A DNA stretch of 64,000 nucleotides from Planctomycetota bacterium (GCA_040219065.1 JAVJTD010000031.1:32236-96235); one strand, 5' to 3'; positions 24,711-56,984 are shown, counted from the stretch's first letter. Translations and numbers: made by a program. The notes: a model not told the origin generated them from the sequence alone.

Positions 24711-25547
24711 ATGCCCGGCGATTGGAATCCGGATCAGTACCATCGCTTTCGGGACGAGCGGAGCCGGCCCTTCTTCGACCTGATGGAATGCGTCGGCGAA
24801 GGCCGGGGCCGGACCTGCCTGGATCTCGGCTGCGGGACGGGCGAGCTGACGGCGGAGCTGCACCGCGAGAAGTCGTTCGAGCTCACCCTCGGCATCGACC
24901 GATCGCCTGCCATGCTCGGTCGAGCGCGGGAGCATGAAGAGGCGGGGCTTCGTTTCGAGGCCGGGGACATCGCCACCTACGAGCCGCGCTCCACGGTCGA
25001 CGTCGTCTTCTCGAACGCGGCGCTGCATTGGGTCGATGATCACCCGGCACTCTTGACGCGGCTGCGCACCTGGCTGCATCCCGGCGGTGAGATCGCGGTC
25101 CAGGTGCCGGCCAACCACGACACCGCGACTCACGAGGTGGCGAACGAGGTCGCTGGCGAGGAGCCGTTTCGGAGCGAGCTGAAGGGCCACGTGCGCGAGT
25201 CCCCGGTCCTGAAGCCGGACGAGTACGCCCGGCTGCTGCATCGACTCGGCTTTCGGCAGCCGACCGTGCGACTCGAGGTGTATCCCCATGTGCTCGACCG
25301 GCGCGACGACGTCATCGAGTGGGTCCGAGGCACGCTCCTGACCGCCTACCAAGTGCGCCTCTCGGGTCCGACCTACGAGCGATTCCTCGAGCGCTACCAA
25401 GAGAGGCTCTTCGAGGTCCTGCCCGATGAAGAGCCGTTCTTCTACCCCTTCAAGCGCATCCTGATGTGGGGGAAGCTGATTCAGGGGACGACGACGGTCC
25501 ACACCGTCCGGGGCGAAATCGAAGACGACGGACCCGGCCGCTCTTGA
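24711..25547 (+). CDS. tam: trans-aconitate 2-methyltransferase
   Basis: WNPDQYHRFRDERSRP N-terminus and SAM motif LDLGCGTGELT co-linear with Tam. Confidence 0.8.
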   Translation: MPGDWNPDQYHRFRDERSRPFFDLMECVGEGRGRTCLDLGCGTGELTAELHREKSFELTLGIDRSPAMLGRAREHEEAGLRFEAGDIATYEPRSTVDVVFSNAALHWVDDHPALLTRLRTWLHPGGEIAVQVPANHDTATHEVANEVAGEEPFRSELKGHVRESPVLKPDEYARLLHRLGFRQPTVRLEVYPHVLDRRDDVIEWVRGTLLTAYQVRLSGPTYERFLERYQERLFEVLPDEEPFFYPFKRILMWGKLIQGTTTVHTVRGEIEDDGPGRS

Positions 25548-25808: not shown

Positions 25809-26900
25809 TCACACGGGGGGCCGCCCCTTTTGGCGATGGCTGGCGCCGAGCTGGGTGGCGAGCTCGATGACGCGGGAGCGGATGGCCTGACCCAGGTCGT
25901 CGAGCGGGTGGACCTCATCGGCGACACCGTTGTCGATCACGGCCTGTGGCATCGACGTCGCCACGCAGGTCGCAGGATCCTGCACGAGGATTCGGCCCCC
26001 GCTCCTCTTGATCGAGACGGCTCCACTCGCCCCGTCGCGCCCCATCCCGGTCAGGACGACTCCGATCCCGAAGCTGCCCCAGGTGTCGGCCACGCTTCGG
26101 AAGAGAGGGTCGGCGGCGGGCCGCACGAAGTTCTCCGTCGGACCGTCGTTCAGTGCCAGCTTGGGGCTCTTGCTGGATTCGAGCACGAGGTGTCGATCTC
26201 CCGGAGCGAGGTAGAGCTTGCCCGGCGCGCACTCTTCGCCCTTCTCGGCCAAGCGGACCTCGAGCTCGGTGTCCCTCTGGAGCCGCTCGGCGAAGTTCGA
26301 GAGCATCCAAGCCGGGCCGTGCTGGACCAAGAAGAAGGCGGCAGGGAGGTTGCCACTGAGGCGCGGCAGGATTGCCGAGAGAGCGCCTGGGCCCCCCGTG
26401 CTCGATGCGATGCAGACACCGAGGAAGCTCGGAACGTCGGCGCGTGGAAGACCCGAGGCCGCGTTCTCGAGGCGGCGGCCTGACGAGGGAGGCCGGTCCT
26501 CGAAGGAAGCCGCAGTCGGTTGCGGCAGGCCGAGCTGGTCGGCCAATCGGCGAGCGATCTGATCGGGGGAGCAAGGCTTGGCGATGAAGTCGTTGGCGCC
26601 GGCATCGAGCGCGTGGGTCCTGGCCTCGGCCGAGTCCAAGGACGTCAGCACGGTGAGCCACGGGACCGGATCGATCTCGGCGCGGATGCGCCGGAGCAAC
26701 CGCATGCCGTTGACGCGAGGTAGGATCCAGTCGGTGAGCACGGCGTCGAATCGACCGCGGCGGAGGATCTCCCAGGCCTCGACTCCGTCTTCGGCGACGG
26801 ACACATCGAACCCGGCCCGGCCCAGTCCTCGCTCCAGGATCAAGGCGACGGTGCGATCATCCTCGACGATCAAGATGCGAGCTCTTGAAGACGCCTTCAC
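25809..26900 (-). CDS. cheB: chemotaxis response regulator protein-glutamate methylesterase CheB (copy 1)
   Basis: N-terminal receiver (ILIVEDD...D...K) and C-terminal methylesterase with the GMGRDG motif. Confidence 0.85.
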   Translation of the reverse strand: MKASSRARILIVEDDRTVALILERGLGRAGFDVSVAEDGVEAWEILRRGRFDAVLTDWILPRVNGMRLLRRIRAEIDPVPWLTVLTSLDSAEARTHALDAGANDFIAKPCSPDQIARRLADQLGLPQPTAASFEDRPPSSGRRLENAASGLPRADVPSFLGVCIASSTGGPGALSAILPRLSGNLPAAFFLVQHGPAWMLSNFAERLQRDTELEVRLAEKGEECAPGKLYLAPGDRHLVLESSKSPKLALNDGPTENFVRPAADPLFRSVADTWGSFGIGVVLTGMGRDGASGAVSIKRSGGRILVQDPATCVATSMPQAVIDNGVADEVHPLDDLGQAIRSRVIELATQLGASHRQKGRPPV

Positions 26901-27046
26901 TTTTGCCTTCCGAATCTTCGAATCGGGGACTTCGAGCCGTGAGCGGCCCTGCCGGAACGGTCACTGTCACCGAGTGCCCGGGCCGCCGCCGCCCGGTCGT
27001 CTTGCTCGAGGGCAAGACCTCCAACAAAGAGGGAGGGAGGAGCCGA

Positions 27047-27547
27047 TCACCCGTTGTAGCTTTGTCGAATGATGTGGAGCTGAGCATCCACCGGACCCAG
27101 GCTCATCTGGGTGACCGAATGCTCGTAGGAGCCGTTGAGCTCGATGCGACCGTGCAGGAACACGGGCAGACCTAGCCGGATGCTCGGCTCGCGCTCGATC
27201 AGGCGACCCTTGACGACGCCGGCGAGGATGTTGACGATCTCACCCAAGGCATCGACCATGTCGCTCGGATCGAGCTCGCCGTCCTCGGGCTCCATGCACA
27301 GGAGCGCCCTTGCGATCTCCTCGCAACCCTGGCTTCGAGCGATCACGCCGATCTGGACGGAGACGCCCTCACTGACCATCGGGATGTAGGCACCCGAGAC
27401 CCCATCGGGGAGCTGGTCCTGGTCGTAGACGCGGAACTCCACGTCGGAGTAGCCGAGAGCCGTCGTGGCGAACTCCTCGACGGCCGCCCGAGTGGCATCG
27501 GTCCAGTCCTGGATGGTGACTGGTGTCAGTTCCTGGGGCTCACTCAT
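27047..27547 (-). CDS. cheX: CheX/CheC-family chemotaxis phosphatase
   Basis: CheC-like consensus DALGEIVNILAG. Its 167-aa size and position next to cheY support the call. Its start overlaps the cheY stop. Confidence 0.6.
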   Translation of the reverse strand: MSEPQELTPVTIQDWTDATRAAVEEFATTALGYSDVEFRVYDQDQLPDGVSGAYIPMVSEGVSVQIGVIARSQGCEEIARALLCMEPEDGELDPSDMVDALGEIVNILAGVVKGRLIEREPSIRLGLPVFLHGRIELNGSYEHSVTQMSLGPVDAQLHIIRQSYNG

Positions 27548-27906
27548 GACATCACCGAGTTGAGAGCTTCCTGGAAGGTCTCGACCGTGAACGGCTTGGT
27601 GATGAAGAACATCGCCCCATTGTCGGACGCCAGCTTGTGCATCGCGGGCGTGCCCTCGGAGGTGACGAAGCCGAACTTCACGGTCGTGCCGGCCTCGTTG
27701 AGGTTGCGCAGGAGATCGATGCCGTTCATCTCCGGCATGTTCCAGTCGCACAGGATGAGATCCGGCGTACCATTCTGCACCAGGCCGAGCGCCTCCTTGC
27801 CGTTGGCAGCCTCTTCGACCGAGTGCTCGCCGAAGCCCGCCTGACGCAGGGTCCGCCTGACGATCATTCGCATGGCCTTGCTGTCGTCGACGATCAGGAT
27901 CTTCAT
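27544..27906 (-). CDS. cheY: chemotaxis response regulator CheY
   Basis: 120-aa single receiver domain: MKILIVDDS, phospho-acceptor D in LILCDWNMPEMNG and a conserved K in TKP. Confidence 0.85.
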   Translation of the reverse strand: MKILIVDDSKAMRMIVRRTLRQAGFGEHSVEEAANGKEALGLVQNGTPDLILCDWNMPEMNGIDLLRNLNEAGTTVKFGFVTSEGTPAMHKLASDNGAMFFITKPFTVETFQEALNSVMS

Positions 27907-28039
27907 CGTTCTTCCCCTCGATGATGGGTCTTGGATGTTCGGGCCGAAGCTCGGCCCCGGCGTAGAAGGCCGCCCGAAGGGCGGACCGTGGCATTTTCGA
28001 GTGATCGGATCGCACCTCGGGTGGCGACCCGCGCAATGA

Positions 28040-28864
28040 TCATTCCTTCAAACGAAAACAGGCCGTCTTGACCTCCGGGACGGTCTCGAAGGCCTCTCCC
28101 GCCGCCAGCGTCATCTCTGGTGCCCCCAGGAACAAGAACCCGTCCGGCCGGAGCCGGGGTCGAATGGCCTGCAGGACGTTCCTCTTGGTCTCCGGGCTGA
28201 AGTAGATGAGCACGTTGCGCAAGAAGATGAGATCGAAGGGCTCACCCCGCACCGGGAGATTCAACAGGTTCAAGGACCGGAACGTGACGAGCTCGGTGAC
28301 CTCCGGGTGCAGCGCCCAATCGTTGCCGTCCTTGACGAAATACTTCTGCAGGTACATCGACGGCAGACCACGCCCCACCTCGAGGCTGGAGAAGCGACCG
28401 CGACGAGCACGCTCGATGACCAGCTCCGAGATGTCGGTGGCCAGGATCGAGATGTCCCAGCTCGCAAGGTCATTGAACTTCTCGAGGATCGTCATCGCGA
28501 TGCTGAAGGGCTCTTGTCCCGTCGAGCAGGCCGCGCTCCAGATGCGGATCCTCTTGTCCTCCCGGCGCGACCTTCGCAGCATCGGGAGGATGACCTCGTT
28601 CAAGGCATCGAAGGGCGTTTGGTCGCGAAAGAACGACGTCTCGTGCGTCGCCATCGCATGAACGATGCGATCGGTGACCGGCGAGCTCGGCGTCGATTCG
28701 GCGGCACTCAGCAGCGCATGGGCCGAGTCTTGTCCCGAGGCTCTCGCCAGCTCCGAGAGTCGGAACTCGATCAGGTAGTTCTTCCCCTCGTCGAGCACGA
28801 TTCCCGAGCGCTTTCGAACCAGATCGCGAACGAACTGGTACTGTTGAGCGGACAAAGAGCTCAT
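28040..28864 (-). CDS. cheR: chemotaxis protein methyltransferase CheR (copy 1)
   Basis: CheR N-terminal helical domain plus SAM-MTase core (IWSAACSTGQEPFSIAM, LRNVLIYF). The start is set at MSSLSAQQ; upstream extensions in the ORF track are rejected. Confidence 0.85.
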   Translation of the reverse strand: MSSLSAQQYQFVRDLVRKRSGIVLDEGKNYLIEFRLSELARASGQDSAHALLSAAESTPSSPVTDRIVHAMATHETSFFRDQTPFDALNEVILPMLRRSRREDKRIRIWSAACSTGQEPFSIAMTILEKFNDLASWDISILATDISELVIERARRGRFSSLEVGRGLPSMYLQKYFVKDGNDWALHPEVTELVTFRSLNLLNLPVRGEPFDLIFLRNVLIYFSPETKRNVLQAIRPRLRPDGFLFLGAPEMTLAAGEAFETVPEVKTACFRLKE

Positions 28865-29967
28865 GTGACGGGTCTCGAGGTCGGGTCGATGCGGGGCGCG
28901 GGGCTCGCTCCTCGTCCGGCCTGCGCCGCCCGTGTGAGGCGCGGGGCAACCTGGCCGAGGGGCACGACGTCGTCGGCGAGGCCGGCTTGGGCAACGGCGC
29001 CTGGCATCCCCCACACGATCGAGGTCGCCCGGTCTTGCACGAGGACTCTCGCTCCGGCGGCCTTGAGCGTTTGCGCTCCGAGGAGACCATCCTGTCCCAT
29101 GCCCGTGAGCACGACGCCCAGGACACGGTTTCCGAACACCTCCACCGCCGACTGGAAGAGCACGTCGGCCGCCGGGCGGCAGGAGTTCACCGGCTCGGTG
29201 TCGGTGAGAGCCGTCTCGATCTGGATTCCTTGACGCCGCACCGTCAGGTGCCGTCCGCCGGGCGCGATCCAGATCTGGTTCGGTCCCAGCACCTCGCCGC
29301 CTTGGGACTCCCGCACCTCGAGCGGCGTCTGGGCATCGAGCCTCTGCGCCAGGAGTTGAGTAAAGGTCGGCGGCATGTGCTGCACGATCAGGATCGGGAT
29401 CGGCAGCGTGGCCGGGAATTGGGAGACGATGTCCGCCAGAGCGTTCGGGCCACCGGTGGACACGGCGACGACGATCGCGTCGACCTTCTGCGACGGTGCT
29501 GCCGCCGGGGAAGTCGCATTGAGCGTGGTAGCGGCAACCGCGAGGCCCACTGGACGCAGTCGTCCGCACAGCGCCTTGATCTTGGGAATCAGGTCTTGGC
29601 GGATGCGGTCCATCGCCGTGCTCACGCTGCCGACGTTGGCGGGTTTGGCGACGTAGTCGGAGGCACCGCGCGAGAGCGCCTCGAGCGTGGCAGCGGCACC
29701 GCGCTCGGTGCGCGTGCTGAACATGATCACGGGAAGCCGCGGCCATTTCTTGCGGATCTCGGAGACCGTCTCGAGACCGTCGAGCACCGGCATCTCGACA
29801 TCGAGGATCACGACGTCCGGCTGCACCTGCTCGATACGGGTCAAGCCGACTCTTCCGTTCGGTGCGGTTCCCGCGACCAACAGCTCTGGATCATCCGAGA
29901 GCACGTTGGTCAGCATGCGCCGCACGACGATCGCGTCATCGACGATGAGGACACGCAGCTTGTTCAT
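28861..29967 (-). CDS. cheB: CheB methylesterase (copy 2)
   Basis: Receiver domain (VLIVDDA...VILDVEMPVLDG) plus methylesterase with GMGQDG. Confidence 0.85.
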   Translation of the reverse strand: MNKLRVLIVDDAIVVRRMLTNVLSDDPELLVAGTAPNGRVGLTRIEQVQPDVVILDVEMPVLDGLETVSEIRKKWPRLPVIMFSTRTERGAAATLEALSRGASDYVAKPANVGSVSTAMDRIRQDLIPKIKALCGRLRPVGLAVAATTLNATSPAAAPSQKVDAIVVAVSTGGPNALADIVSQFPATLPIPILIVQHMPPTFTQLLAQRLDAQTPLEVRESQGGEVLGPNQIWIAPGGRHLTVRRQGIQIETALTDTEPVNSCRPAADVLFQSAVEVFGNRVLGVVLTGMGQDGLLGAQTLKAAGARVLVQDRATSIVWGMPGAVAQAGLADDVVPLGQVAPRLTRAAQAGRGASPAPRIDPTSRPVT

Positions 29968-30115
29968 GTCGGATCCTTGCCTGGCTGCACTCGATCTCGC
30001 GCCGCCGGCTGGGCGGTCGCCCCCAGAGACACTGGCGCCGAACCGCGAAGACGACTCGGCACCTGGACCAGCTCCTGGTCTCGAAGAGCCGGCCGGAGCA
30101 GAGCCCTTTTCGCGA

Positions 30116-30598
30116 TCACTTCAAGTAGAGCGAGATCCGACCATCGCTGTATCCGGGCACCGACACCCGGAAGTGGTCGTTGACCTCGGAATCGTCGCAG
30201 AAGTCGACGGTGCGCTCATCGGCCGGATTGCCCGGCGACAGCACCTTCGAGAGGCGGATGCGGGACGGGCCGTGGAACAGGTTCACGCACACGTTGAGCA
30301 CTTCGCTCACGTTCTCGAAGATGTTCTCGGGGATCTGCGAAGTGCGAATGCAGTCTTCCGCCACGCCCGGCGGGATGAGCGCCAGGGCGGCGCCCATGCT
30401 GCTGCTGAGCGGCAGATCGATGACGCAAACGGCCACCGTGTTCTCTTCCGCATCCTGATAGACGGCGACGGTCAGCGGCTGCGCGCAGTCGGGCTCGAGG
30501 GCCGAGCCGCCCGCGTTGACCGTGACCTCCTTGCCCAGGAGGCTGGTCAGCGTCTTACGGACGTCATCCTGATCCGGCAAGCTGTACGAGTCGGACAT
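30116..30598 (-). CDS. hypothetical 160-aa protein within the che operon (weak CheC/CheX-like E-x2-N signature)
   Basis: ENIFENVSEVLNVCVNLF resembles the CheC-family E..N motif. It is not a CheD or CheW match, so function is unassigned. Confidence 0.35.
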   Translation of the reverse strand: MSDSYSLPDQDDVRKTLTSLLGKEVTVNAGGSALEPDCAQPLTVAVYQDAEENTVAVCVIDLPLSSSMGAALALIPPGVAEDCIRTSQIPENIFENVSEVLNVCVNLFHGPSRIRLSKVLSPGNPADERTVDFCDDSEVNDHFRVSVPGYSDGRISLYLK

Positions 30599-30724
30599 GT
30601 TCTGTGTTGCTCCGTTCTCATTCCTGTGCCGAGCAGCCTGAGAGAGGCAGTCTCTGTCCCCCGTCTCGCGCGAGGGGGCGTTCGTCCAAGCTGATCCCTA
30701 CATCGGCCAAGCCAGAAGCCCGGC

Positions 30725-31579
30725 TCAAAGTGGAATCGTCTTCCGTCCTCCGGGAGGTGGCGTCGGCCCCGAGCGCTGGAAGTACCCGGCCTTTCCCAAT
30801 CCGCGCCGCTCGATGGTCGTGTCGAAGCCCTGCAAGCTCTCTCCGTTTCCCAGGAAGAGGGCTCCGTCGGGCCGCAGCACGCTCTCGACCTCGCTCACGA
30901 CTCGGCGCTTCGTATCGATGTCGAAGTAGATCAGCACATTGCGAATGAAGACGATGTCGAACGGTTCGAGCGGAGGAAGCTTCTGCACGAGGTTCATCTG
31001 TCGAAACTCCACCGCCTGGCGCAGGCTCGGCTCGATGCGGAAGCCCCGTCCATCCGGGTGGAAGTACTGTTCCACTTGTTTCTGAGTCAGCCCGCGATGG
31101 ACCTCGACCGCGGTGTACCAGCCTTCGCGCGCCCGCTCGAGGGCACGCTGCGACAGGTCGGTCGCCAGGACCTCGAGCTCCCATCCGAGTAGCTCGGGGC
31201 AGCTCTCGCGAATCGCGATCACCAGGCTGTAGGGCTCCTGTCCCGTCGAGCAGGCCGCGCTCCAGATCCGCAAGCGCCGACGATCCTGACGAGCGCGGAT
31301 CAGGGCGGGAAGCACTTCGTGAGTGAGGACCTGGAAAGGGAACACGTCGCGAAAGAAGAAGGTCTCGTTCGTCGTCATCGCGTCGACGACCCGGCTCTGC
31401 ATGGCGGCCCAGCCGGCATGCAGCCCGTCGAGGATCTCCTCGAGTGAGCGCCCCTCGTCTCGTGCCAAGCGCTCCAGGCGCATCTCGACGAGGTAACTCT
31501 TGTCGGTCGGCAGGAGGATCCCTGAATCCGACTCGACGAGGCGACGGATCACCTCGAAATCGCGTGGCTGGATCGGCAT
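30725..31579 (-). CDS. cheR: CheR methyltransferase (copy 2)
   Basis: IWSAACSTGQEPYSLVIA and IRNVLIYF motifs. The start is set at MPIQPRDFE. Confidence 0.85.
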   Translation of the reverse strand: MPIQPRDFEVIRRLVESDSGILLPTDKSYLVEMRLERLARDEGRSLEEILDGLHAGWAAMQSRVVDAMTTNETFFFRDVFPFQVLTHEVLPALIRARQDRRRLRIWSAACSTGQEPYSLVIAIRESCPELLGWELEVLATDLSQRALERAREGWYTAVEVHRGLTQKQVEQYFHPDGRGFRIEPSLRQAVEFRQMNLVQKLPPLEPFDIVFIRNVLIYFDIDTKRRVVSEVESVLRPDGALFLGNGESLQGFDTTIERRGLGKAGYFQRSGPTPPPGGRKTIPL

Positions 31580-31640
31580 GGTAGACTCCCCTCGGGCACG
31601 CATCCGGCTCGGACGCAGGCCCTCCCCAAGGACACCCGGC

Positions 31641-34217
31641 TCAGATTCGGAACTGATCGACCAGCATTTGCAGCTCGCCGGCGAGGCGTGACAGCTCGGA
31701 GGCGGCTGTCCGATTGGACTCGACTCCCGCGCTCGTGCTCTGCGCCACCCGCGCGACCGCCGTGACGTTCTGCGCGATCTCACCACTTCCGGAAGCCGCC
31801 TCGGAGATGTTGCGGCTGATCTCGTTGGTCGTGGCCGTCTGCTCCTCGACCGCGCTGGCGATCGTGTTGGAGATGTCGTTGATGCGATCGATGACCGAGC
31901 TGATCTCCTCGATCGCCTCGACGGCGCTCTTGGTATCGCCCTGGATCGTCTCGATCTTCTGGCTGATGTCCTCGGTCGCCTTGGCCGTCTCCTTGGCGAG
32001 CTCCTTGACCTCGTTCGCGACGACGGCGAACCCCTTGCCGGCTTCACCGGCGCGGGCGGCCTCGATCGTCGCGTTGAGGGCGAGCAGGTTGGTCTGCTCC
32101 GCGATCGAAGTGATCACCTTGATGACGTTGCCGATCTCGGTGCTGCTCTCGCCCAGCTTGGCCACGGTCATGTTGGTGGTCTGGGCGACGCGCACGGCGG
32201 CCGTCGCGACGCGAGCGGCCTCGTTCGAGTTCTCGGCGATCTCGCGGATGCTCGCCGACATCTCCTCGACACCGGTCGCCACCGACTGCACGTTGTGCGA
32301 CACCTGGCTCGCCGCGCCCGAGACGAGCTCGGCCTGGCTGCAGGTCTCGTTCGCGTTGTCGCCGATCTGAGCGCTCACCTGCTCGAGGGAGCTTCCCGCC
32401 GCCGCCAAGGCGCCCGAGTTCTGAGCGATGGAGCCCAGGCTGGCGCGCAGCCTTTGGAAGAAGCGTCCGAGCGCCGCCCCGATCTGACCGATCGCATCGT
32501 CGCCATCCATCGGCACGGTCTGGGTCAAGTCACCCGACTCGGCCGCATTGACGACATCGAGGATGCTGTCGACTCGTCGGTGCAACGCCTCGGCCGCTAT
32601 GCGCTCACGCTCGCTGGCCGTGCGCAGCTCTTCTTGGCGGCGCAGCTCGTCAGTGACCTCCTGCCAGATCAACATCCGGCCAAGGTCGCGACCCTCCCGG
32701 TCGGTGACCGTCGAACCGAAGACACGGAAGGCATCGTGGTCGAGCTGAATGACGGTGTCCAAGCTGTCGTCGCCGTCGCCCGCGACCCAGGCCTCGAGGC
32801 TTCCGGCGCGATGGCAGAAGTCGTCGAAGCTCGCCCGCCCCGACTGCAGCGCGCTCGCGGTGAACATCGATCCGTGAGCATCGGCGAGCTGACGGAGTGC
32901 CCGGTTCGAGAAGCGAATGCGTCCCGAGGAGTCGAGCAGCAGAGTCGGCGTCGGCGAGAACTGCACCATCGCCGAGACGCGCTCGACCTCTTGGCGCTGG
33001 CCGGCGAGCTCGGACCAGTCGACCCGCTCGGAGCCGAGGGCCGAGCGAATATCGGTGAGCGCCTCGTCCAGCGCGCTCGCCATCGAGCCGATCTCGTTCG
33101 AGCTCTTCTTCGAGAGGCGGCTGCTCAGGTCACCGCCCCGGAGGCGGTCGACGGCCTCGCGAATCTCGCGCACCGGCTGGGTGATTCCGTTCGAGACGAA
33201 TACACCGGCGCCGACGAGCAAGACGAGCAGGACAAGGCCCACCGTGGCGAGCGACGACCGCAGGGAAGAGATGGAGGCGAAGGCCTCCTCGGCGTCCTGC
33301 CGGACGAGGACCGACCAGCCGAGGCCATCGAAGTCGCCGAAGCCCTCGGAGTGGGCAAAGCCGACGATGTGCTGCGATCCTCCCGGTGCGTCCTCGAGCT
33401 TGAAGCCGGCCTTGCCCTGCACCGCGAGCTGGGCCGCTTCGATGCCGAGACGGGTCGGGTTCACGTCACCGAGGATCATCGCGGCATCGAGATCATCGAC
33501 GACGAAGCCCTCGCGATTCAGCACTTGAGTGTGCGCCGACCCGAATCCGTGCGAGGCGAGCTGCTTGCGGAAGTCGGCCGCGATGTCGCGCACGACAACC
33601 GCCTGTGAGGCGCAGGCGAGCCAGACGCGCGAGACGGCGCCACCGGGGGCGTAGACCGGAGCGGCGATCTGGACCACCAGGCCCCGACCACCCGTCGCTC
33701 GCGCGACCGCCTTGTCGGCGACCAGATCCGACATCCACCAGCCAGCGCTTCGCGGCAAGCGAAGCCCTTTCTCGAACCACTCTTGGCCTTGGACGCTCGT
33801 GCCGACCAAAGAGGCCGCATCGAGCGGACGGCCATCGTGGTCGAGCTCGCTGGTCGCGAGGACCTTGCCGTCGCGGTCGGCGACCAGCACGAGGTCATAG
33901 CTCGGATCGAGGAGCGACAGCTCTGCCGCGGCCGCGGACAGCTCCTGCGGAGTCTCCAGGCCGGTAGAATGGGCCGCCAAGGACTCGACGAGCCGGGCGC
34001 GGTCCCTGAGCCCGCGATCCATCAGATCGAGCATTGAGACCGCCAATCCCTCGAGGCGCTCGCCCGAGTCCTCGATCAGCGCCTCCCGGGCCCGGCCCAT
34101 GGAGAGCACGGCGACGACGACCGCCGGCACCATCCCCAGGACCAGGAACGAGAAGATCAGCCTCGAGCGCAAGCTCGTCAGGATCGACCCGGAAACACCT
34201 TCACTCGACTTGATCAT
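31641..34217 (-). CDS. methyl-accepting chemotaxis protein with a large periplasmic sensor, HAMP and additional cytoplasmic modules
   Basis: N-terminal TM, a roughly 300-aa extracytoplasmic region and a second TM. HAMP ([18 protein letters not shown]) and a canonical MCP signalling domain ([31 protein letters not shown]). Confidence 0.85.
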
Positions 34218-34309
34218 TGCCCTCGCGACCTTCCTCGCTACTTCGTTCCCGCACCCATGGGGGGCAACTCGTGAATCGTGTCTTCTTCTCTTCGTCCGAT
34301 GGACTGCTG

Positions 34310-34756
34310 TCACCCGAGAAACGAGCCGGCACCGCAGAGGATCGCCCGCTCGACATCGAGGATCAGGAGTAGTCGACCGTCGAGCTTGTAAGCTCCTCGG
34401 ATCAGGTCCCTCGCCTCGCCTTGCAGGGTCTCCGGCGGCCTCTCGAAGGCCTCCTCCTCGACCTCGAGCACGTCGCCGATCTCATCGACGAGAAAGCTCA
34501 CGGCGCTGTCGCCGGTTCGGATCACGACGTTCATCGGAAGCTGGCCTTGGGGGCGGGGCGACAGGCCGAGGCGTCTCCGAAGATCGATCGCGGTCACGAT
34601 CTGGCCCCGCAGGTTGATCAGCCCCTCGACGACCCCGGGTGCCAAGGGCACGTGAGTCATCTGCTGGTAGCGGATCACCTCCTGGACCTTCAGCACCTCG
34701 ACGCCAAAGAACAGGCCGTCGAGGCAGAACGTGCAGAACTGCTGGGCTTCGGTCAT
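34310..34756 (-). CDS. cheW: CheW coupling protein
   Basis: 148-aa single CheW-like domain ([21 protein letters not shown]). Confidence 0.85.
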
Positions 34757-34757
34757 C

Positions 34758-37205
34758 TCAGAGCTCCATTGGGGCGGTGTCGAGGAGGCCCGGATCGACG
34801 CAGCGAATCACCGTCTCGAGGTCGAGGATGTCGGTGACCGTCCCGTGGATCACGGCCGCGCCTCCCACTCCCGGTCGGCCCGATCGCTTCTCGATGCGGA
34901 TACGCTCGTCGACGATGTCATCGATCTGATCCACGATGAGCCCGATGCACTGCTCGTCGCGGGAGTACACGATGATCTGGACCACGTCCTGCTCGGCTTC
35001 GATCGGTGCGCCGTAGCCACCGCCCACGGCATGCGCCAATGAGATCAGAGGCATGATGCGGCCGCGATACTGCACGACGAGGCGATCGCCGCTGTTCTCG
35101 ACCCGCGAGGCGTCGAACTCCTCGAGCCGGTTGACCAGTCCGAGCGGGATCGCGAAGCGGCCTTGCTCTCCGACCGTGACCAGAAGCAACGTGTGGCGCT
35201 CGAGCGCCTCCTCCTCGGCCGGTGGCTTGGCGACGACCAAACGCTTGTCGCCGACCTCGGAGACGACCTTGCCTTGCTGAGCGACACCGAGCACATCGAG
35301 GATGAGCGAGACCGAGCCATCCCCGAGGATCGTCGCGCCTGCGAAGACCGGGATGTCCTTGAGCGTCTTGTCGAGCGGCTTGACGACGATCTCCTGCGTG
35401 TCATTGATCGTGTCGACGATCATGCCGAACTGCCGATCGTCCGCCCGCAAGACCACCATGTTGATGGAAGTCGACTCCTTATCTTCGGGCAGCCTGAGGA
35501 GCTGGTTCAGGTAGACGAGCGGCAAGAGCGTGCCGCGGAGCCGGTAGACCGGCGTGCCGTGAATGCGCTCGATCGCGGTGCGCGCTTGCTCGCCGTCGAG
35601 ACGAACGAGCTCGAGGAGACTCACCTGCGGGATCGCGAAGCGCTCGCCGCCACTGGTCACCATCAAGGCCGGGATGATGGCCAGGGTCAGTGGGATCTTG
35701 ATCTTGAGCGTCGTGCCGCGGCCCACCTCCGAAGAGATGTCGAGCGAGCCACCGATCTTCTCGATGTTCGTGCGGACGACGTCCATGCCGACGCCGCGCC
35801 CGGAGACCTTCGTCACCGCCTCGGCGGTCGAGAAGCCGGGACGGAAGATCAGGTGGATCAGCTCGCGATCGGTCATCGTGCTGGCCTGATCCGGAGTGAT
35901 CAGCCCCTTCGAGAGCCCCTTCTCCCGCATCTTCGCCGGATTGATGCCGCCGCCGTCGTCGACGATCTCGATGTTGACCTGGCCTCCCTCGTGGAAGGCG
36001 TTCAGGCGAAGCACGCCCTCGGCGGGCTTGCTGTTCTCGACCCTTACCTCGGGCTTCTCGATGCCGTGGTCCACCGAGTTCCGCACGATGTGCGTCAGGG
36101 GGTCCTTGATCGCCTCGATGATCGTTCGGTCGAGCTCGGTCTCCTTGCCCTCCATCTCGACGCGCACTTGCTTGCCGCACATCACCGCGAGGTCGCGGAC
36201 GACGCGCGGAAACTTGCCCCAGACATTGCCGATCGGCTGCATGCGCGTCTTCATCACGCCCTCTTGCAGCTCGGTGGTGATCAGGTTCAATCGCTGCGAC
36301 GTGGCGAGCAGCTCCGGCTCGCTGGTGTCGCTCGCGTACTGGAGGACCTGGTTGCGGGCGAGCACGAGCTCCCCGACCTGGTTCATGAGCTTGTCGAGCA
36401 ACCCGACGTCGACGCGGATGCTGGCCTCGGACATTCCCGGGCCGCCGGCCTTGGTCGGCTTGACGGGAGCGGGCTCTGCAGCGGCCGGCTTTACCGGCGG
36501 CGGTGGCGTCGGCGCATCGGGCACCGAAGCTTCTCTGGCGGGCGCACTCGAAGAGGTACCAGCGGTGGATGCCGCGGGCTTGTTCTGGTTGAACATCACC
36601 AAAGAGCTCGCCGGGCCGCCAGCCGTCGCGGCCGGCTCCGCTTGTGGCTTCGGCTTGTTCTGATGGAACATCACCAAGGAGCTCGAAGGCGCAGAGCTCG
36701 GGGCCGGCTCGTCGGTGGGGGTGACCTCGGCGACGGGCTCCGGCTCGGCCGCAGGAAGAGCGGACGCCGCGGGCTCGGGCGAAGCCTCCGCAGCAGGAAC
36801 GGGAGCAGCCGGTTGATCGGCGTTGAGACGCGTGAGCTCGGTGACGAGCTCGGCATACTCGGCGTCACCGTCGGTGCTGGTCTCCTCGATGTTGCCGAGC
36901 ATCTCTCGTACGGCATCGACCATGCCGAGCAGCGCGGTCGTGATCTCGGGAGTCAAGGTCAGCTCGCCGTCGCGCAGCTTGCTCAGCAAGTTCTCTCCGA
37001 CATGGGTCACCCGCTCGAGGTTCTCGAAGGCGAGGAAGCCGGCAGTTCCCTTGATCGTGTGGATCGTCCGGAAGACGGCCGCCAGCGTGTCCCGATGAGT
37101 CGGATCCTGCTCCAACGCGACGAAGTCGGCGTCGAGCTGATCGAGGTTCTCGTAGCTCTCGACCAGGAACTCCTTGAGGACATCATCCATGTCGCTCAGG
37201 CTCAT
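34758..37205 (-). CDS. cheA: CheA histidine kinase (Hpt, P/A-rich linker, dimerisation, HATPase, two C-terminal CheW-like domains)
   Basis: Hpt His in FRTIHTIKGTAGFL. HATPase G-boxes (DDGGGI, GRGVGMDVV). Two CheW-like P5 modules. Confidence 0.9.
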   Translation of the reverse strand: MSLSDMDDVLKEFLVESYENLDQLDADFVALEQDPTHRDTLAAVFRTIHTIKGTAGFLAFENLERVTHVGENLLSKLRDGELTLTPEITTALLGMVDAVREMLGNIEETSTDGDAEYAELVTELTRLNADQPAAPVPAAEASPEPAASALPAAEPEPVAEVTPTDEPAPSSAPSSSLVMFHQNKPKPQAEPAATAGGPASSLVMFNQNKPAASTAGTSSSAPAREASVPDAPTPPPPVKPAAAEPAPVKPTKAGGPGMSEASIRVDVGLLDKLMNQVGELVLARNQVLQYASDTSEPELLATSQRLNLITTELQEGVMKTRMQPIGNVWGKFPRVVRDLAVMCGKQVRVEMEGKETELDRTIIEAIKDPLTHIVRNSVDHGIEKPEVRVENSKPAEGVLRLNAFHEGGQVNIEIVDDGGGINPAKMREKGLSKGLITPDQASTMTDRELIHLIFRPGFSTAEAVTKVSGRGVGMDVVRTNIEKIGGSLDISSEVGRGTTLKIKIPLTLAIIPALMVTSGGERFAIPQVSLLELVRLDGEQARTAIERIHGTPVYRLRGTLLPLVYLNQLLRLPEDKESTSINMVVLRADDRQFGMIVDTINDTQEIVVKPLDKTLKDIPVFAGATILGDGSVSLILDVLGVAQQGKVVSEVGDKRLVVAKPPAEEEALERHTLLLVTVGEQGRFAIPLGLVNRLEEFDASRVENSGDRLVVQYRGRIMPLISLAHAVGGGYGAPIEAEQDVVQIIVYSRDEQCIGLIVDQIDDIVDERIRIEKRSGRPGVGGAAVIHGTVTDILDLETVIRCVDPGLLDTAPMEL

Positions 37206-37632
37206 CGGTGCTCTCTCTCCGTCAAAGCTGGGCGCGACGCAACGCGACCCAGGCCTTCCTCACCCGCGGTGACCACCTCGGCTCGTTTCGACTCGAGACG
37301 TGGGAAGAAGAGAGACCACCCCCTCCAGGGAGAGTTTCCCGGCTGCCCACACCCTTGGCCTTATCGGCCAAACTCGCCGCGGACTTTGCCCTTTGTTCGC
37401 AACCTGTCGAAACCCTGCGGCAACCACGGACGACGGTGCCTGCGGATCTTCTGCGACCTCCGAGAGCTTCTCGCCGAGAGCACGGCGCGGGTGTGGAGTG
37501 CACGGTTGAGGTTTTGGGGTTTTGAAGTTCTTGGAGATTGTCTGTCGCAACTCCGCGAGTCGGGTCGTTCTCTCCAGTGGGTAAACGGAATGGCGGCGAG
37601 AGCCGCCGGGAAATCAGATTGGAGAGAGTCTG

Positions 37633-37974
37633 ATGAACTGGATCGCATTCTGTCTGTTGTCCCTGCTGCCCCTGTCGGCGCCGACGCCTCGGCCGGTGGA
37701 CAATCAGCCCTGCATTCTGAAGCTGAACCTGACCACTGGCGCGTTCATGTGCTTCGATGCCGACTGCACGCCGTGCGACGAGCTCGAGGTGACGATGGAG
37801 GGCACGACGATCACACGCTGCTCGTGTAGCGGCGGCGGCTCCTACGACGGGACCTGCTGGGGCAAAGGTGAGACGGTCGCCGGACAGTCGACGCTCATCT
37901 GCATCGCAGGCACGAGCTGCAACGACTGTGACTTCGACGCGGATGGCACTTGGAAGTGGTGCATCTGCCAATGA
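37633..37974 (+). CDS. secreted Cys-rich mini-protein (113 aa, 13 Cys)
   Basis: Signal peptide MNWIAFCLLSLLPLSAPTP followed by a Cys-dense mature region (CSCSGGGSYDGTCWG...CNDCDFDADGTWKWCICQ). Confidence 0.45.
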   Translation: MNWIAFCLLSLLPLSAPTPRPVDNQPCILKLNLTTGAFMCFDADCTPCDELEVTMEGTTITRCSCSGGGSYDGTCWGKGETVAGQSTLICIAGTSCNDCDFDADGTWKWCICQ

Positions 37975-37999: not shown

Positions 38000-38653
38000 A
38001 TGACCAAGTTGATGATCGTGACGGCGGCAATGTTGGCCGCTCTCGGATCGAGTGGACCACTCTTCATCGAAGAAGAGCCGCCCGCTCCCGACCCTTCGGA
38101 GTTCGTCGAGTTTCGCTACGACGCCGACCCGAGCCTTGGCTTCCTCGGAGAGTGGCAAGGTGAGGACCTTCGCGAGGTGACTTCGGTCGAAGAGGAACCG
38201 GGACGAGTTCGGGTCCATTGGATTCAACTCGACCGAGCCCGATTCGTGGTCGACTCGGCGTTGGTCGGAGAGCGATTTCAGCGTGGACAGAGAGTCGAAG
38301 TCGACGTTCCCTCATCACTCCGTCTCGCGTTGACAGTGAATCCCGAGGGCGAGGTCGCGCCGAGGATCGACTACCGGGCGGAAGCGGACCTCGCGTCTCC
38401 GGAAGGTCATCCCGCCGCCCTCGGGACGCGGAAGTCGAGGCAGGTCGACGGGAGCACCCATCGAATCTCGAAGGCGGTCTACATCTCCGATCGGGAGAAG
38501 GTGGTCGGCTACCAAGCCTCGCCCGGCACCCTGACCATCGAGGAGAACGCCGTGCGCTTTGGGGTCGAGCTCGAGGTGACCGAGCCCTACGGCCTATTGA
38601 TGGCACGCCGGGCCAACGGTGACCTCTACTTCTGGCTCGTGCCTGGCAACTGA
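38000..38653 (+). CDS. secreted hypothetical protein (217 aa)
   Basis: GAAGGAG RBS upstream and signal peptide MTKLMIVTAAMLAALGSSG. No recognisable domain. Confidence 0.45.
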   Translation: MTKLMIVTAAMLAALGSSGPLFIEEEPPAPDPSEFVEFRYDADPSLGFLGEWQGEDLREVTSVEEEPGRVRVHWIQLDRARFVVDSALVGERFQRGQRVEVDVPSSLRLALTVNPEGEVAPRIDYRAEADLASPEGHPAALGTRKSRQVDGSTHRISKAVYISDREKVVGYQASPGTLTIEENAVRFGVELEVTEPYGLLMARRANGDLYFWLVPGN

Positions 38654-38737
38654 GCTTTCGCTTCCAGGGAAGAAGGAAAAGGGCCCGAGTGCCTCAGCAC
38701 TCGGGCCCTCGCTTTCCTGGTTCCGAGCCCGACCGAT

Positions 38738-41074
38738 TCAGAACGGCAGGCTGACCTCGATGTCGTCCGAGCCGACGCCGAGCGGTTGCTCTTGAACCTC
38801 TCCGTTCGATTCCCAACGAAGCAGGTACGAGCCCGCGGCGAGAGTCCGAGCGACCGTATGGAGCTTGTTCCTCGGAATGAACGGGACCGACGCACAGACG
38901 ACGTCGTCCGAAGATCGGACGATGAAGAGCCGGCCCGGCTCCGCGGAGACCGGGAGGTCTGCCACGAACTTCACCGTGTGGAACTGACTGGGGATCTCGA
39001 GATCGATCGCCGCTGGCAAGGGTCCCCCCTCGAGCTTGCCGACGGGCATGGCGAGGTGATCGGCTCCAGCCTCGGCCGGAGAAGGTGCCCAGTAAAGAGT
39101 CCCCAAGGCGTTCTGCTCGAGTGCCAGCTTACCTCCGGACTCCGCAACGATTCGCTGCGGGTTATTGCTCCGCTCGAAGTACACCGAGCCATCGGAGACA
39201 GGGATACCGGCCATGCGCTTGGTGATTGGAACCGAAAGCATCTGAGCCTGCAGCGAGATCGTCCCGAGATCCTGGCCCAAGGAGCTTTCCAAATTCAAGG
39301 CGCACGTGGTGACCTCGTATCCGGGAGCTCGGATCTCCAGCTTGCTCTCTCCGAGCGGGACATCGGACAGAGTGAAGAGACCGTTGCTGACGCCGAGGAG
39401 CTCGCTCACCTCTCGGCCCCGATTGCGGTCCCAGATCAGCTCAACCTCGGGTACCGTCGTGATCGGAGTATTGGATTCGGAGTCGATGAGCTCGAAGGTC
39501 ACCGGACCGAAGCCATCGGTGAGGTATTGAGTCGGAAGGACGAAGCTCAGCGTGGCCCCCGGCAACGAGCTCAGCGGCTGTGAGCGAACGATCCGGCTCT
39601 TGAACATCGCGAATAGCGTGATCGGCGGAAGCTGATGAAGCTCCAGCACCCGTCCGCCAGCCGTCGGTGAATACGTGTATCGACTGGAATCGCCGACGAT
39701 GAGGCTCTCCGCAGAGGATTCCATCGAGGAGCGCCAAGTCCCGGGCTGCGGCTCCGCCGGCGAGGCGAGGAAGCCGATGCTCGCGATGTGGTCCCGGAGA
39801 TACGGACTCGCTCCGATCTGGTCCAGGTAGCTGGTCCAGAGCTGACCGGACTCGGTCACGAGCTGCACCGAGAATGAATGGATCGCATCGAATCGGATTC
39901 GAATTCGGCCGGGATCCGCGGGATCCGAAACGGTCCACTGGACGCTCGATTGCAGGTAACCAGCGCTCGTCTCGAGCGTCCCCGTGGTACCCACGACATT
40001 CTCGAAGACCACGACGCCGGACTTGTCGGTCACACCCGACATCGATTCCCCTTCCGGCGACTCGAGCTGAACCTGCAGTCCCGCCACCCGGCGCCGAGTA
40101 TTCGCCCGATCGACCAAGATGAACTCCAGGCGCATCGGATCATGACTCGCAGCCATGGTGCCACCGCCCGGAAGATCGCTACGACCCGGCACCGAGGCGG
40201 CATCCGTGGAGGAGACGGAGGGAGCGCTCGGCTCGGGCACCAGTGTCGCGCTCGAGAAGGGCCCAGAGCTCGTCACGTCGGGCTCGGGGGCTAGAGTATC
40301 GCGAGAGGAGCCACTTCCGAGCTCAATGGGCTCGCCCGGCTGTTCGAGGACCTTCGAACTGATCGCGACGATCGAAACGATGCCCAAGACGCTCGCCGCG
40401 ACCCAGCCCACGATCTTCGGGATCGAAGTCGAGGTCGAGCTGGCGACGCCCAGCCCTTTGGAGATCCTTCGGATCGCGACCAGATCGCCCGGCGCGAGCA
40501 GCGGCACCAGGGCCGACAACCAGACCTGCCGGTCTCCATTCGATCGATCGTCCAACCGCCGACGGAATTCCTTGAGTCCTCGATCGAGCCGAGACTTGAT
40601 CGCCTCTCGGCCGACTCCCTCCCGATTCGCGATCTCTTGGAGCGAGAGTCCTTCGAAGAAGCGGGCGACCAAGGTCCGCTGATAGATCTCCCCCATGGCG
40701 TCGAGCTGATCGAGCAGCAACCGATGCGTCTCGAGCTGCTCCTGCGCCGAGACGACTCGATCCTCCTCTTCGGACCTCTCGGCCACCAACAGGAATTGGG
40801 ACCGATGCTTCTTGGCACGCATCTGGTCCCGAAGGTGTCTCAAGAAGACTCGATACAGCACCTTGCGCAACCAGGCCCGCAACTGACTCTGGTTCTCGAT
40901 CGATGGCGGCGACTTCAGTGCCCGCAGGTACGTGTCTTGAAGGATCTCCTCAGCACTTTCCACGTCCCCCACGAGATGGATCGCGAATCGACGCAGGGCC
41001 TCCTGATGATCCTCGAGCATTTGGGCTTCGAAGCCGACTGCTCTGGCCAGCCCGGCCTTTCGACTGTGCACCAT
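38738..41074 (-). CDS. ECF sigma-70 factor fused to a TM segment and a roughly 500-aa extracytoplasmic domain (sigma/anti-sigma-like fusion)
   Basis: The N-terminal roughly 190 aa carry sigma-70 region 2 (AEEILQDTYLRAL) and region 4 (LSLQEIANREGVGREAIKSRLDRG). A single TM (IVGWVAASVLGIVSIVAI) is followed by a large beta-rich C-terminal domain. Confidence 0.6.
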   Translation of the reverse strand: MVHSRKAGLARAVGFEAQMLEDHQEALRRFAIHLVGDVESAEEILQDTYLRALKSPPSIENQSQLRAWLRKVLYRVFLRHLRDQMRAKKHRSQFLLVAERSEEEDRVVSAQEQLETHRLLLDQLDAMGEIYQRTLVARFFEGLSLQEIANREGVGREAIKSRLDRGLKEFRRRLDDRSNGDRQVWLSALVPLLAPGDLVAIRRISKGLGVASSTSTSIPKIVGWVAASVLGIVSIVAISSKVLEQPGEPIELGSGSSRDTLAPEPDVTSSGPFSSATLVPEPSAPSVSSTDAASVPGRSDLPGGGTMAASHDPMRLEFILVDRANTRRRVAGLQVQLESPEGESMSGVTDKSGVVVFENVVGTTGTLETSAGYLQSSVQWTVSDPADPGRIRIRFDAIHSFSVQLVTESGQLWTSYLDQIGASPYLRDHIASIGFLASPAEPQPGTWRSSMESSAESLIVGDSSRYTYSPTAGGRVLELHQLPPITLFAMFKSRIVRSQPLSSLPGATLSFVLPTQYLTDGFGPVTFELIDSESNTPITTVPEVELIWDRNRGREVSELLGVSNGLFTLSDVPLGESKLEIRAPGYEVTTCALNLESSLGQDLGTISLQAQMLSVPITKRMAGIPVSDGSVYFERSNNPQRIVAESGGKLALEQNALGTLYWAPSPAEAGADHLAMPVGKLEGGPLPAAIDLEIPSQFHTVKFVADLPVSAEPGRLFIVRSSDDVVCASVPFIPRNKLHTVARTLAAGSYLLRWESNGEVQEQPLGVGSDDIEVSLPF

Positions 41075-41300
41075 GTGTCTCCTCCTCCTCGATGGACAGG
41101 AGCCAACGACTCTCCAACTTCCCCCTCTCGGTGAAGCTCTCCCATACTCCCTGGAATCCCGATGGCGAGGAAACGGGGGCAGAGAATCGAGCGGGGGCGA
41201 TCGTCCCGTCTCTGAAGTCTACTCAAAGGCCCGGACCGAGGAGCTCCCTTTTCCCTCCACCCGCGGTCGCACGGGCGCCGAAGAGAGAAAAACTTCTCTC

Positions 41301-41786
41301 ATGAGAAAATTTTCTCTCGCGCTCTCGCCCGTTCCCACGTCTCATCGAGCGACGGAAGCGAATGGACCGAGACCACAGGAGCCTCTCGTGACCGATCCTC
41401 AAAACCTCAGTCGCCGCGAGCGACAGATCATGGACATCGTCTACGAGCTCGGCCAGGCGACCTCCGCCGAGATCCTCGAGCGCCTCCCCGATCCCCCCAG
41501 CGCCGCTTCCGTCCGGACGCTGCTCCGCATCCTCGAAGAGCGCGGGCACCTCCGCCACACCCCGGACGGACCGCGCTACGTCTATCACCCCACCGTCCCG
41601 CGCAACCGCGCCAGCCGCTCCGCGCTGCGCCACGTCTTGCGGACATTCTTCGAGAATCGCGTCACGGGCGTCGTCGAGACCCTCCTCGACATCGAGGGCA
41701 AGAACCTCTCTCAAGAGGAGGTCGCCCGGCTCGCCGAGCTCATCGAGCACATCCAGGAGACCGAGGAGCAGGAGGACGATCGATGA
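41301..41786 (+). CDS. BlaI/MecI/CopY-family transcriptional repressor
   Basis: Winged-helix LSRRERQIMDIVYELGQATSAEILERL...SVRTLLRILEERGHL. The start is uncertain, with an alternative GTG at 41388. Its stop overlaps the downstream BlaR1-like gene. Confidence 0.7.
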   Translation: MRKFSLALSPVPTSHRATEANGPRPQEPLVTDPQNLSRRERQIMDIVYELGQATSAEILERLPDPPSAASVRTLLRILEERGHLRHTPDGPRYVYHPTVPRNRASRSALRHVLRTFFENRVTGVVETLLDIEGKNLSQEEVARLAELIEHIQETEEQEDDR

Positions 41787-56768: not shown

Positions 56769-56984
56769 GATAGGGCTCTTCCTGGAGAAATGGGCCGGGC
56801 TGGAAGTGGGGCGAGCTTCGTGCCGCTCAGGCTACGGCAGACGGCTGGAAGGGGCAAGCCTGGAGGGAGGGTTGGGCGCCAGGAGTGCCTGAGCCGAATG
56901 AGCCTGTGGCCGCGAATCGAAGCCGACGCCACCGAGCGAGCGAGCTGTCCGACTGCCGGAGCTGCTCGAGGATCTTCAGATTGA

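Follow-up and report, generated by a model that had tools for sequence, protein, structure and literature searches.

Organisation of the chemotaxis gene cluster

The chemotaxis (che) gene cluster described here was detected in the genome of a Planctomycetota bacterium (GCA_040219065.1), within a stretch of 64,000 nucleotides (JAVJTD010000031.1:32236-96235) that was analysed as a whole and is referred to as the window in the following. Ten co-directional open reading frames (ORFs) on the minus strand fill positions 25809-37205 and encode, in this order, CheA, CheW, a methyl-accepting chemotaxis protein (MCP), CheR1, a hypothetical protein (Hyp) of 160 amino acids (aa), CheB1, CheR2, CheY, CheX and CheB2. 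The ORF calls and the Pfam domain annotation both agree with the gene list and order given in a preliminary description of the locus. The cluster thus holds two CheR and two CheB proteins, and its ten genes are as follows:

cheA: 34758..37205, minus strand, 815 aa; Hpt, H-kinase_dim, HATPase_c and two CheW stretches (Pfam)
cheW: 34310..34756, minus strand, 148 aa; Pfam CheW, E=5e-35
mcp: 31641..34217, minus strand, 858 aa from the ATG at 34217, or 890 aa from the GTG at 34313
cheR1: 30725..31579, minus strand, 284 aa; Pfam CheR; motifs for S-adenosylmethionine (SAM) binding intact
hyp (CheX-like): 30116..30598, minus strand, 160 aa; no Pfam match
cheB1: 28861..29967, minus strand, 368 aa; REC and CheB_methylest; S170/H197/D293, QHMPPTFT
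cheR2: 28040..28864, minus strand, 274 aa; Pfam CheR; the "R" of the F5 "BR" pair
cheY: 27544..27906, minus strand, 120 aa; single-domain regulator, D7/D8/D54/T82/K104, DWNMP
cheX: 27047..27547, minus strand, 166 aa; Pfam CheX, 38 bits against a cut-off of 27
cheB2: 25809..26900, minus strand, 363 aa (354 aa in the NCBI annotation); REC and CheB_methylest; S167/H194/D289, QHGPAWML

The guanine plus cytosine (GC) content in the window is 59-68%. The 160-aa ORF is 100% identical to the NCBI entry "hypothetical protein RL885_01685" of a Planctomycetota bacterium, which is located on a 127-kb contig of a metagenome-assembled genome.

A chemotaxis core with the hallmarks of class F5

The predicted CheA carries H49 in its Hpt domain, followed by a disordered Ala/Pro-rich linker without a P2 domain, the dimerisation and ATPase domains and two CheW-like (P5) domains (Pfam CheW stretches, E=6.8e-41). 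A C-terminal receiver is missing. Among the matches listed in a genome scan more than 500 CheA relatives are similar over the entire protein, the second CheW domain included. The best 80 relatives listed share 51-57% identity, matching residues 1 to ~811, and span the Acidobacteriota, Planctomycetota, Verrucomicrobiota, Nitrospinota, Gemmatimonadota and Competibacteraceae; no relative listed exceeds 57% CheA identity.

The MCP is predicted to consist of a first transmembrane segment (~20-42), a periplasmic dCache-like region (~43-320, ~280 aa), a second transmembrane segment, a HAMP domain, a ~150-aa linker and a second HAMP domain, and Pfam recognised a weak dCache_1, two HAMP and the MCPsignal domain. 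As counted by hand, without class-specific hidden Markov models (HMMs), 133 residues (19 heptads) separate the end of the second HAMP domain (~590) from the hairpin tip at E725, and 133 more lead to the C-terminus at 858, which corresponds to a receptor of the 38H class. A C-terminal pentapeptide is absent, and pairs of glutamate residues occur at 651, 770 and 791. The active site of CheY (DWNMP) resembles that of E. coli.

About 8% of CheA proteins possess two CheW domains, almost all of them belonging to the widely distributed class F5 (Berry et al., PMC10782961). According to PMC10746217, this class is defined by the extra CheW domain of CheA, the gene order AW...BR and cognate 38H receptors. 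All of these hallmarks are present here, namely the second CheW domain, the order cheA-cheW...cheB1-cheR2 and the 38H receptor, the gene order being broken by two extra genes, cheR1 and hyp, between mcp and cheB1. Taken together with the 51-57% identity to other CheA proteins that carry two CheW domains, they suggest that the core of the cluster belongs to class F5. Since both features are F5 hallmarks, neither a CheA with two CheW domains nor a 38H MCP is remarkable. The preliminary description had regarded the CheA architecture and an 859-aa MCP with a large periplasmic sensor as atypical; the former is the norm in class F5 (PMC10782961, PMC10746217), and the latter is an ordinary receptor with a dCache-sized region of ~280 aa, a HAMP-linker-HAMP arrangement and 19+19 heptads.

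The core shares with other F5 systems (Wuichet & Zhulin; Azospirillum brasilense Che1, Rhodospirillum centenum Che1, Caulobacter crescentus CheAI) the extra CheW domain of CheA, the order cheA-cheW...cheB-cheR, a cognate 38H receptor without pentapeptide and a single-domain CheY as output. It differs from them in that CheA lacks a C-terminal receiver, cheR1 and a CheX-like gene are situated between mcp and cheB, and cheX and an orphan-type cheB are appended. No non-motor output regulator (e.g. a REC-GGDEF protein or a transcription regulator) is encoded in the cluster in addition to the CheY, CheX-type, CheB and CheR proteins, and no CheZ is present.

Two side observations concern the CheA linker. 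On the minus strand, cheA contains a 34-nt direct repeat (36577-36610 and 36652-36685; 91% identical, 75 nt apart) which encodes SSLVMF(H/N)QNKP twice within the Ala/Pro-rich, apparently disordered P1-P3 linker. It could represent a short docking motif or merely a recent slippage duplication; a loose pattern search detected no such motif in the linkers of related CheA proteins. In many of the related CheA proteins that have two CheW domains (L011, L015, L019, L020, L063, L067, L069) P2 is replaced by an insert of ~60 aa with two LG(E/D)xLVxxGxV...Q repeats. These inserts presumably resemble the cyclic di-GMP-binding motif of MshEN/T2SSE_N domains, which Pfam did not confirm: its only matches were sub-threshold ones to DUF4388 (E 0.002-0.02). 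A survey of CheA architectures published in 2023 makes no mention of a linker-insert domain of this type.

Both CheB and both CheR proteins are complete

The preliminary description claimed two complete copies each of the methylesterase and the methyltransferase. In an alignment with the CheB protein of Salmonella (1A2O; S164/H190/D286, positions counted from the printed alignment) CheB1 keeps the catalytic residues S170/H197/D293 and the receiver residues D10/D11/D56/K108, and CheB2 keeps S167/H194/D289 and E13/D14/D57/K108. Like 1A2O, both proteins combine a receiver with a catalytic domain and possess the Ser/His/Asp triad as well as the receiver residues; CheB2 and its subfamily differ from it in the motif following the catalytic histidine (QHGPxWML instead of QHMPPxFT). 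CheB1 passes the NCBIfam model for CheB (387.5 bits, cut-off 293). CheB2 falls below the cut-offs of two such models (235.1 against 293 and 225.1 against 342) and passes Pfam CheB_methylest with 193 bits.

CheR1 and CheR2 both align end to end with the pentapeptide-independent CheR1 of P. aeruginosa (5XLY), which they resemble, and both retain the motifs TxET-FFRD, WSAACSTGQEP, ATDxS and RNVLIYF. The Pfam CheR domain was detected with E=5e-56 and 8e-56 over 185-189 of its 195 positions, and CheR_N (cut-off 27) scored 29.4 for CheR2, above the cut-off, and 24.3 for CheR1, just below it. As neither a truncated copy nor the loss of a Ser/His/Asp residue or of the SAM motif was observed, the claim of two complete CheB and two complete CheR proteins holds, and all four are apparently active.

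Gene content of related loci

The ten proteins were mapped by tblastn onto the best 80 related loci, 49 of which reach 8 kb or more downstream of cheA. In 40 of these 49 loci, which share the order cheA-cheW-(mcp)-(cheY)-cheB-cheR with one copy of each gene, a single CheB and a single CheR are encoded; five have a CheB only and four neither. Two CheB or two CheR proteins were found in none of the 49, nor was a homologue of the Pfam-type CheX (tblastn, E<=1e-5), and a homologue of the 160-aa ORF directly follows a second cheY in four. The doubled set is thus rare among the relatives, which bears out the view that two CheB and two CheR genes in one cluster are atypical; that the cluster is an operon is what we infer.

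Several intact CheB and CheR proteins per organism are likewise found in Rhodobacter sphaeroides, Pseudomonas aeruginosa and Geobacter spp. In these species each pair normally belongs to its own cheA cluster, or the genes are dispersed. In the present cluster, by contrast, a single cheA, cheW and mcp are followed by two interleaved pairs that differ in lineage. In Geobacter genomes cheR and cheB outnumber cheA, and some of the copies are located outside che clusters (PMC2577667).

Two CheR/CheB pairs of different lineage

CheB1 and CheB2 share 34% identity, CheR1 and CheR2 44%. The CheB proteins of related clusters always match CheB1 best (48-54%), CheB1 nests among the CheB proteins of F5 clusters in a neighbour-joining tree, and cheB1 and cheR2 overlap by 4 bp (ATGA). 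CheB1 and CheR2 are the canonical "BR" pair of the F5 system.

The closest homologue of CheB2 (P0122, 56% identity) is encoded in GCA_029260795.1 (locus L130; also found in the Logan assembly as L131), where an overlapping cheR-cheB pair is the only che content between flanks that are shared with the window. Upstream, L130 shares with the window the genes for a DUF7133 protein, BlaR1, BlaI (76% identity), a fusion protein with an extracytoplasmic function (ECF) sigma factor and two small ORFs; downstream it shares those for a methyltransferase (61%) and an aminotransferase (71%). The two small ORFs of the window match the 111-aa and 227-aa ORFs of L130 with 35% and 37% identity in tblastn and also match at the DNA level. 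The L130 CheB is 56% identical to CheB2 and 33% to CheB1. Its CheR scores 214 bits with CheR1 and 141 bits with CheR2, and groups with CheR1 in 182 of 200 neighbour-joining bootstraps, CheR1 and CheR2 forming a group in seven. From the CheB identities, the CheR scores and the bootstrap grouping it follows that CheR1 and CheB2, as judged by sequence comparison, are one evolutionary module, orthologous to the lone cheR-cheB pair of L130. The copies of CheB and CheR in the cluster, which the preliminary description had called duplicated, are accordingly better described as old paralogues of different lineages.

An in-place tandem duplication of an R-X-B module (R1-X'-B1 / R2-Y-X-B2) was considered as the origin of the gene order and rejected. 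CheB2 is nearer to orphan CheB proteins (up to 56%) than to CheB1 (34%), CheR1 clusters with the lone CheR of the syntenic locus, and there is no sequence similarity between Hyp and CheX.

In the window the CheR1/CheB2 module is split: cheA-cheW-mcp lie upstream of cheR1, and hyp-cheB1-cheR2-cheY-cheX lie between cheR1 and cheB2, so no single insertion explains the arrangement. The methyltransferase gene next to cheB2 (24711-25547, plus strand) is inverted relative to its counterpart in L130 (11210-12019) while both of its neighbours keep their orientation, and in the window the genes for DUF7133 and BlaR1 are separated by ~8 kb of additional genes. Because of this inversion and these extra genes, local rearrangement around the che locus is indicated and the locus appears plastic. 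Its history may have been an accretion of genes around an ancestral cheR1-cheB2 pair or, as another possibility, the loss of eight genes in the relative. A closer relative from a different sequencing run, whose Hyp protein is 68% identical, also has the Hyp gene followed by a CheB1-like gene; this junction is therefore not unique to the present metagenome-assembled genome.

A CheB subfamily mostly encoded alone

In a metagenome scan and a protein search the homologues of CheB2 formed a separate clade, and ~110 of the 120 top homologues carry QHGPxWML right after the catalytic histidine, where the CheB proteins of F5 clusters have QHMPPxFT. Twelve genomic contexts of the clade were read in addition to that in the window. 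Ten of them (L082, L083/L084, L086, L091, L094/L095, L101, L132, L134, L135, L136) are free of cheA, cheW, mcp and cheR over the 6-10 kb around the gene, and in the remaining two (L092, L130/L131) a cheR located upstream is the sole che neighbour. The subfamily thus departs from canonical CheB proteins both in the NCBIfam scores noted above for CheB2 and in being found mostly without che neighbours. Neighbours of the lone genes include those for a glycosyl hydrolase, NfeD, a P-type ATPase and a beta-lactamase, and in L082 the CheB2-type gene directly follows a gene for a GAF-PAS-HisKA-REC hybrid kinase. A literature search for orphan CheB/CheR proteins found nothing. The genomes encoding the subfamily have GC contents of 34-70% and are named as Kapabacteria/Ignavibacteria, Nitrospinales, Fibrobacterota and Planctomycetota.

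A CheX-like protein without a domain annotation

The 160-aa ORF had no match in Pfam or NCBIfam, BLASTP against the CheX protein of the window was negative, a profile of its family had zero matches among the sequences of the Protein Data Bank, and a word-based search retrieved the protein itself and one homologue. An alignment seeded by weak tblastn matches located after cheY in four related loci recovered 250 proteins, all annotated as hypothetical. An AlphaFold2 prediction based on 41 sequences (predicted local distance difference test, pLDDT, 94.8) shows a CheC-like alpha/beta fold, and the 37 best-ranked Foldseek matches (34 at E<=1e-3) were without exception FliM middle domains, CheX, FliY and CheC.

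The proteins CheC, CheX and FliY share the consensus D/S-x3-E-x2-N-x21-P, in which the glutamate and asparagine, borne on a long helix, reach into the active site of CheY (PMC12887009). The 160-aa protein has E95-x3-E99-x2-N102 on a long helix (91-107), at the position of CheX E96/N99. Residues N96, E99 and N102 are invariant in the 41 sequences, and position 95 is D or E; position -4 of the motif (E95), D/S in the consensus, is E here and D in most homologues. The CheX protein of the window has a D-x3-E-x2-N motif from residue 99, with which hhalign pairs the family motif at low probability. Like the CheX proteins of T. maritima (1XKO), B. burgdorferi (3HZH) and V. vulnificus (6VPW), the 160-aa protein combines a similar size and predicted fold with one D/E-x3-E-x2-N motif on a long helix and a genomic linkage to CheY.

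The family normally occurs downstream of cheY. Loci of Myxococcota, Competibacter and others have a family member right behind a 120-aa CheY next to a cheA cluster, and fusions of a receiver domain with a Hyp domain exist (P0324, P0263). An exhaustive profile search retrieved 2,041 representative clusters (E<=1e-3), 1,614 of them at E<=1e-10. The 160-aa ORF encodes a CheY-associated CheX-like protein of the CheC/CheX/FliY/FliM-middle superfamily, a family missed by the domain databases. It is most likely a phosphatase for phosphorylated CheY (CheY-P); possibly it is a non-catalytic, FliM-like binder of CheY-P instead.

The family also comprises tandem forms with two to four 160-aa domains in one polypeptide (P0241-P0249, P0253, P0279; 516-944 aa). 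No Pfam domain belonging to the CheC/CheX/FliY family was detected in the four that were checked, P0244 giving an unrelated weak Xpo1 match.

Transcriptional organisation

The start of cheW lies 1 nt past the stop codon of cheA, cheY and cheX overlap by 4 bp (ATGA), and mcp and cheR1 are 61 bp apart. Four gaps of 126-148 bp separate cheR1 from hyp, hyp from cheB1, cheR2 from cheY and cheX from cheB2 (146 bp). Neither sigma-70 sites nor repeated intergenic elements were detected in the gaps, terminator-like matches occurred at chance level, and no structured RNA was significant there (fold z-scores -1.4 to +0.3). Co-transcription of all ten genes is plausible. The following features lie upstream of cheA:

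divergent intergenic region upstream of cheA: 37206..37692, 487 bp; presumed promoter region
two small divergent ORFs: 37693-37968 and 38006-38644, plus strand; homologous to the 111-aa and 227-aa ORFs of L130, synteny anchors
terminator-like hairpin: 38679..38710, minus strand; 14 pairs, then a T-rich tail; situated behind the ECF-sigma fusion gene

Between cheA and the two small divergent ORFs there remain 487 bp, the likely promoter region of the cluster; no convincing ORF and no sigma-70 consensus site were detected within them. The hairpin marks the che cluster off as a transcription unit separate from the ECF-sigma gene.

Proposed pathway and alternative interpretations

At the level of the sequence, every domain and catalytic residue of the standard pathway is present. 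The MCP, CheW and CheA would assemble into arrays, in which CheA phosphorylated at H49 would pass phosphate to CheY, acting on the flagellar switch, and to CheB1. CheR2 would methylate and CheB1 demethylate the 38H receptor without pentapeptide tethering. Since CheZ is lacking, the removal of phosphate from CheY-P is assigned to the CheX-type phosphatases, with CheX and the CheX-like protein both presumably shortening the lifetime of CheY-P. CheR1 and CheB2 would constitute a second adaptation module that shares its transcriptional control with the F5 core. This module could serve another receptor class encoded elsewhere, or the same array with different kinetics or sites, with or without input from this CheA. 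We consider it rather probable that the locus is a composite chemotaxis cluster in which an F5-class (flagellar-type) core has been combined with three interleaved extras, the core consisting of cheA, cheW, mcp, cheB1-cheR2 and cheY-cheX and the extras being cheR1, cheB2 and the CheX-like gene. It is a modest variant of the standard pathway, neither a new kind of pathway nor a case that overturns anything.

Several points weigh against this interpretation. The assignment of the core to class F5 is based on hallmarks rather than on class-specific HMMs of MiST or on a phylogeny. All trees are neighbour-joining trees of small samples, and one syntenic relative (GCA_029260795.1) was found. The 64-kb window contains no flagellar, pilus or further MCP genes, the cluster being flanked by metabolic and typical Planctomycetota genes; the link to a motor and the output are therefore presumptive, and so are the second pair's substrates. 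Promoters could lie within the four gaps of 126-148 bp, and cheB2 in particular might stand on its own, like the corresponding genes of its relatives. As regards the CheX-like protein, its family aligns with the CheX of the window in hhalign over the motif helix only (probability 11-14%), the proline of the consensus is displaced (at +20 or +23 instead of +22), and FliM middle domains, which are binders of CheY-P and not phosphatases, rank highest among the structural matches.

CheR1 and especially CheB2 might instead be mere neighbours of the pathway, a functionally independent orphan pair interleaved by local rearrangement, with cheB2 having its own promoter and CheB2 being phosphorylated by another kinase and acting on other receptors or substrates. 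Such independence would fit the stand-alone occurrence of the CheB2 subfamily in ten of 12 contexts including the copy after a hybrid kinase, the 146-bp gap before cheB2, the plasticity of the locus seen in the methyltransferase inversion and the ~8 kb of extra genes relative to L130, and the CheB2 scores below the NCBIfam cut-offs. However, cheR1 has a central position in the cluster and follows mcp at a distance of 61 bp without a terminator between them, the gap between cheX and cheB2 contains neither a terminator nor significant structure, the ten genes share strand and composition, and the receiver of CheB2 retains every phospho-acceptor residue and shares 36% identity with the CheY of the cluster. 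We therefore regard an independent orphan pair as rather unlikely. Less likely still is a broader proposal according to which QHGPxWML CheB proteins, with a partner CheR if present, are a separate protein-glutamate modification module that normally lacks a dedicated CheA, CheW and MCP and has here been wired into an F5 flagellar pathway, beside a new CheX-like family of CheY-P phosphatases, giving one array with two adaptation branches.

The preliminary description saw in the locus one specialised, possibly non-motility pathway with duplicated CheB and CheR and two adaptation modules. On this reading CheB and CheR would have been duplicated in place, and both modules would act on the same 859-aa receptor. 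Both pairs are indeed intact and co-directional with one CheA, CheW and MCP, the window lacks flagellar genes, and the arrangement is unique among the 49 related loci. Yet the features called atypical are F5 hallmarks, and the output consists of a plain single-domain CheY with DWNMP and CheX-type phosphatases, without an alternative regulator, all of which speaks against a non-motility pathway. Duplication in place is moreover difficult to reconcile with copies that are 34% and 44% identical and with CheR1 and CheB2 grouping with an independent pair and with a separate CheB subfamily, so that we consider this reading improbable. An artefact of assembly or binning, by which two chemotaxis loci of different organisms were chimerically joined in the contig, has to be considered for DNA from a metagenome-assembled genome with paralogous che genes that could draw mis-joins. 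In the independent Logan assembly of run SRR26147846, however, the seven distal genes from cheR1 through cheB2 are found exactly, with the same lengths, on one 6.3-kb contig. The GC content and the GC content by codon position are even across all ten genes, DNA identity between the paralogues (73-82%) is confined to short stretches that would not suffice for a mis-assembly, the Hyp-CheB1 junction is present in a second sample, and L130 is syntenic with both flanks. A chimeric contig is accordingly most improbable.

Neighbouring genes

Upstream of the cluster a 778-aa protein (38738-41074, minus strand) combines an N-terminal ECF sigma factor (regions 2 and 4) with a long C-terminal extension that includes a CarboxypepD_reg-like stretch. 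Its gene is divergent from a pair encoding a BlaI/BlaR1-type repressor (41073-41786, plus strand) and an M56 sensor-peptidase (41783-44242, plus strand). The arrangement is kept in L130, the sigma-fusion protein being just 27% identical there.

Farther away, a small ORF with a weak TIR_2 match adjoins a gene for a protein with MAP3K_TRAF_bd and TPR-S domains, and beside them lies a gene for a 1,457-aa protein without a Pfam match and with a weak PADLOC match to LmuB (56827-57150, minus strand; 57256-58578, plus strand; 58628-63001, minus strand). This region may be a defence-related neighbourhood; all of the matches, including those of the PADLOC scan, are weak.

Significance

The cluster is a naturally occurring example in which two CheR/CheB pairs of separate evolutionary origin stand behind one F5 CheA, CheW and 38H receptor, and could be used to ask how adaptation enzymes pair with receptor classes. 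It also points to a large subfamily of CheB proteins with the motif QHGPxWML that are mostly encoded alone. If these proteins did form a separate modification module, the module might be fed by other kinases, such as the hybrid kinase of L082, or act on non-canonical substrates, and one array would gain two mechanistically different adaptation branches. The CheX-like family, finally, comprises ~2,000 clusters that current domain databases miss, and genomes scored as lacking a CheY-P phosphatase may possess one by way of this family.

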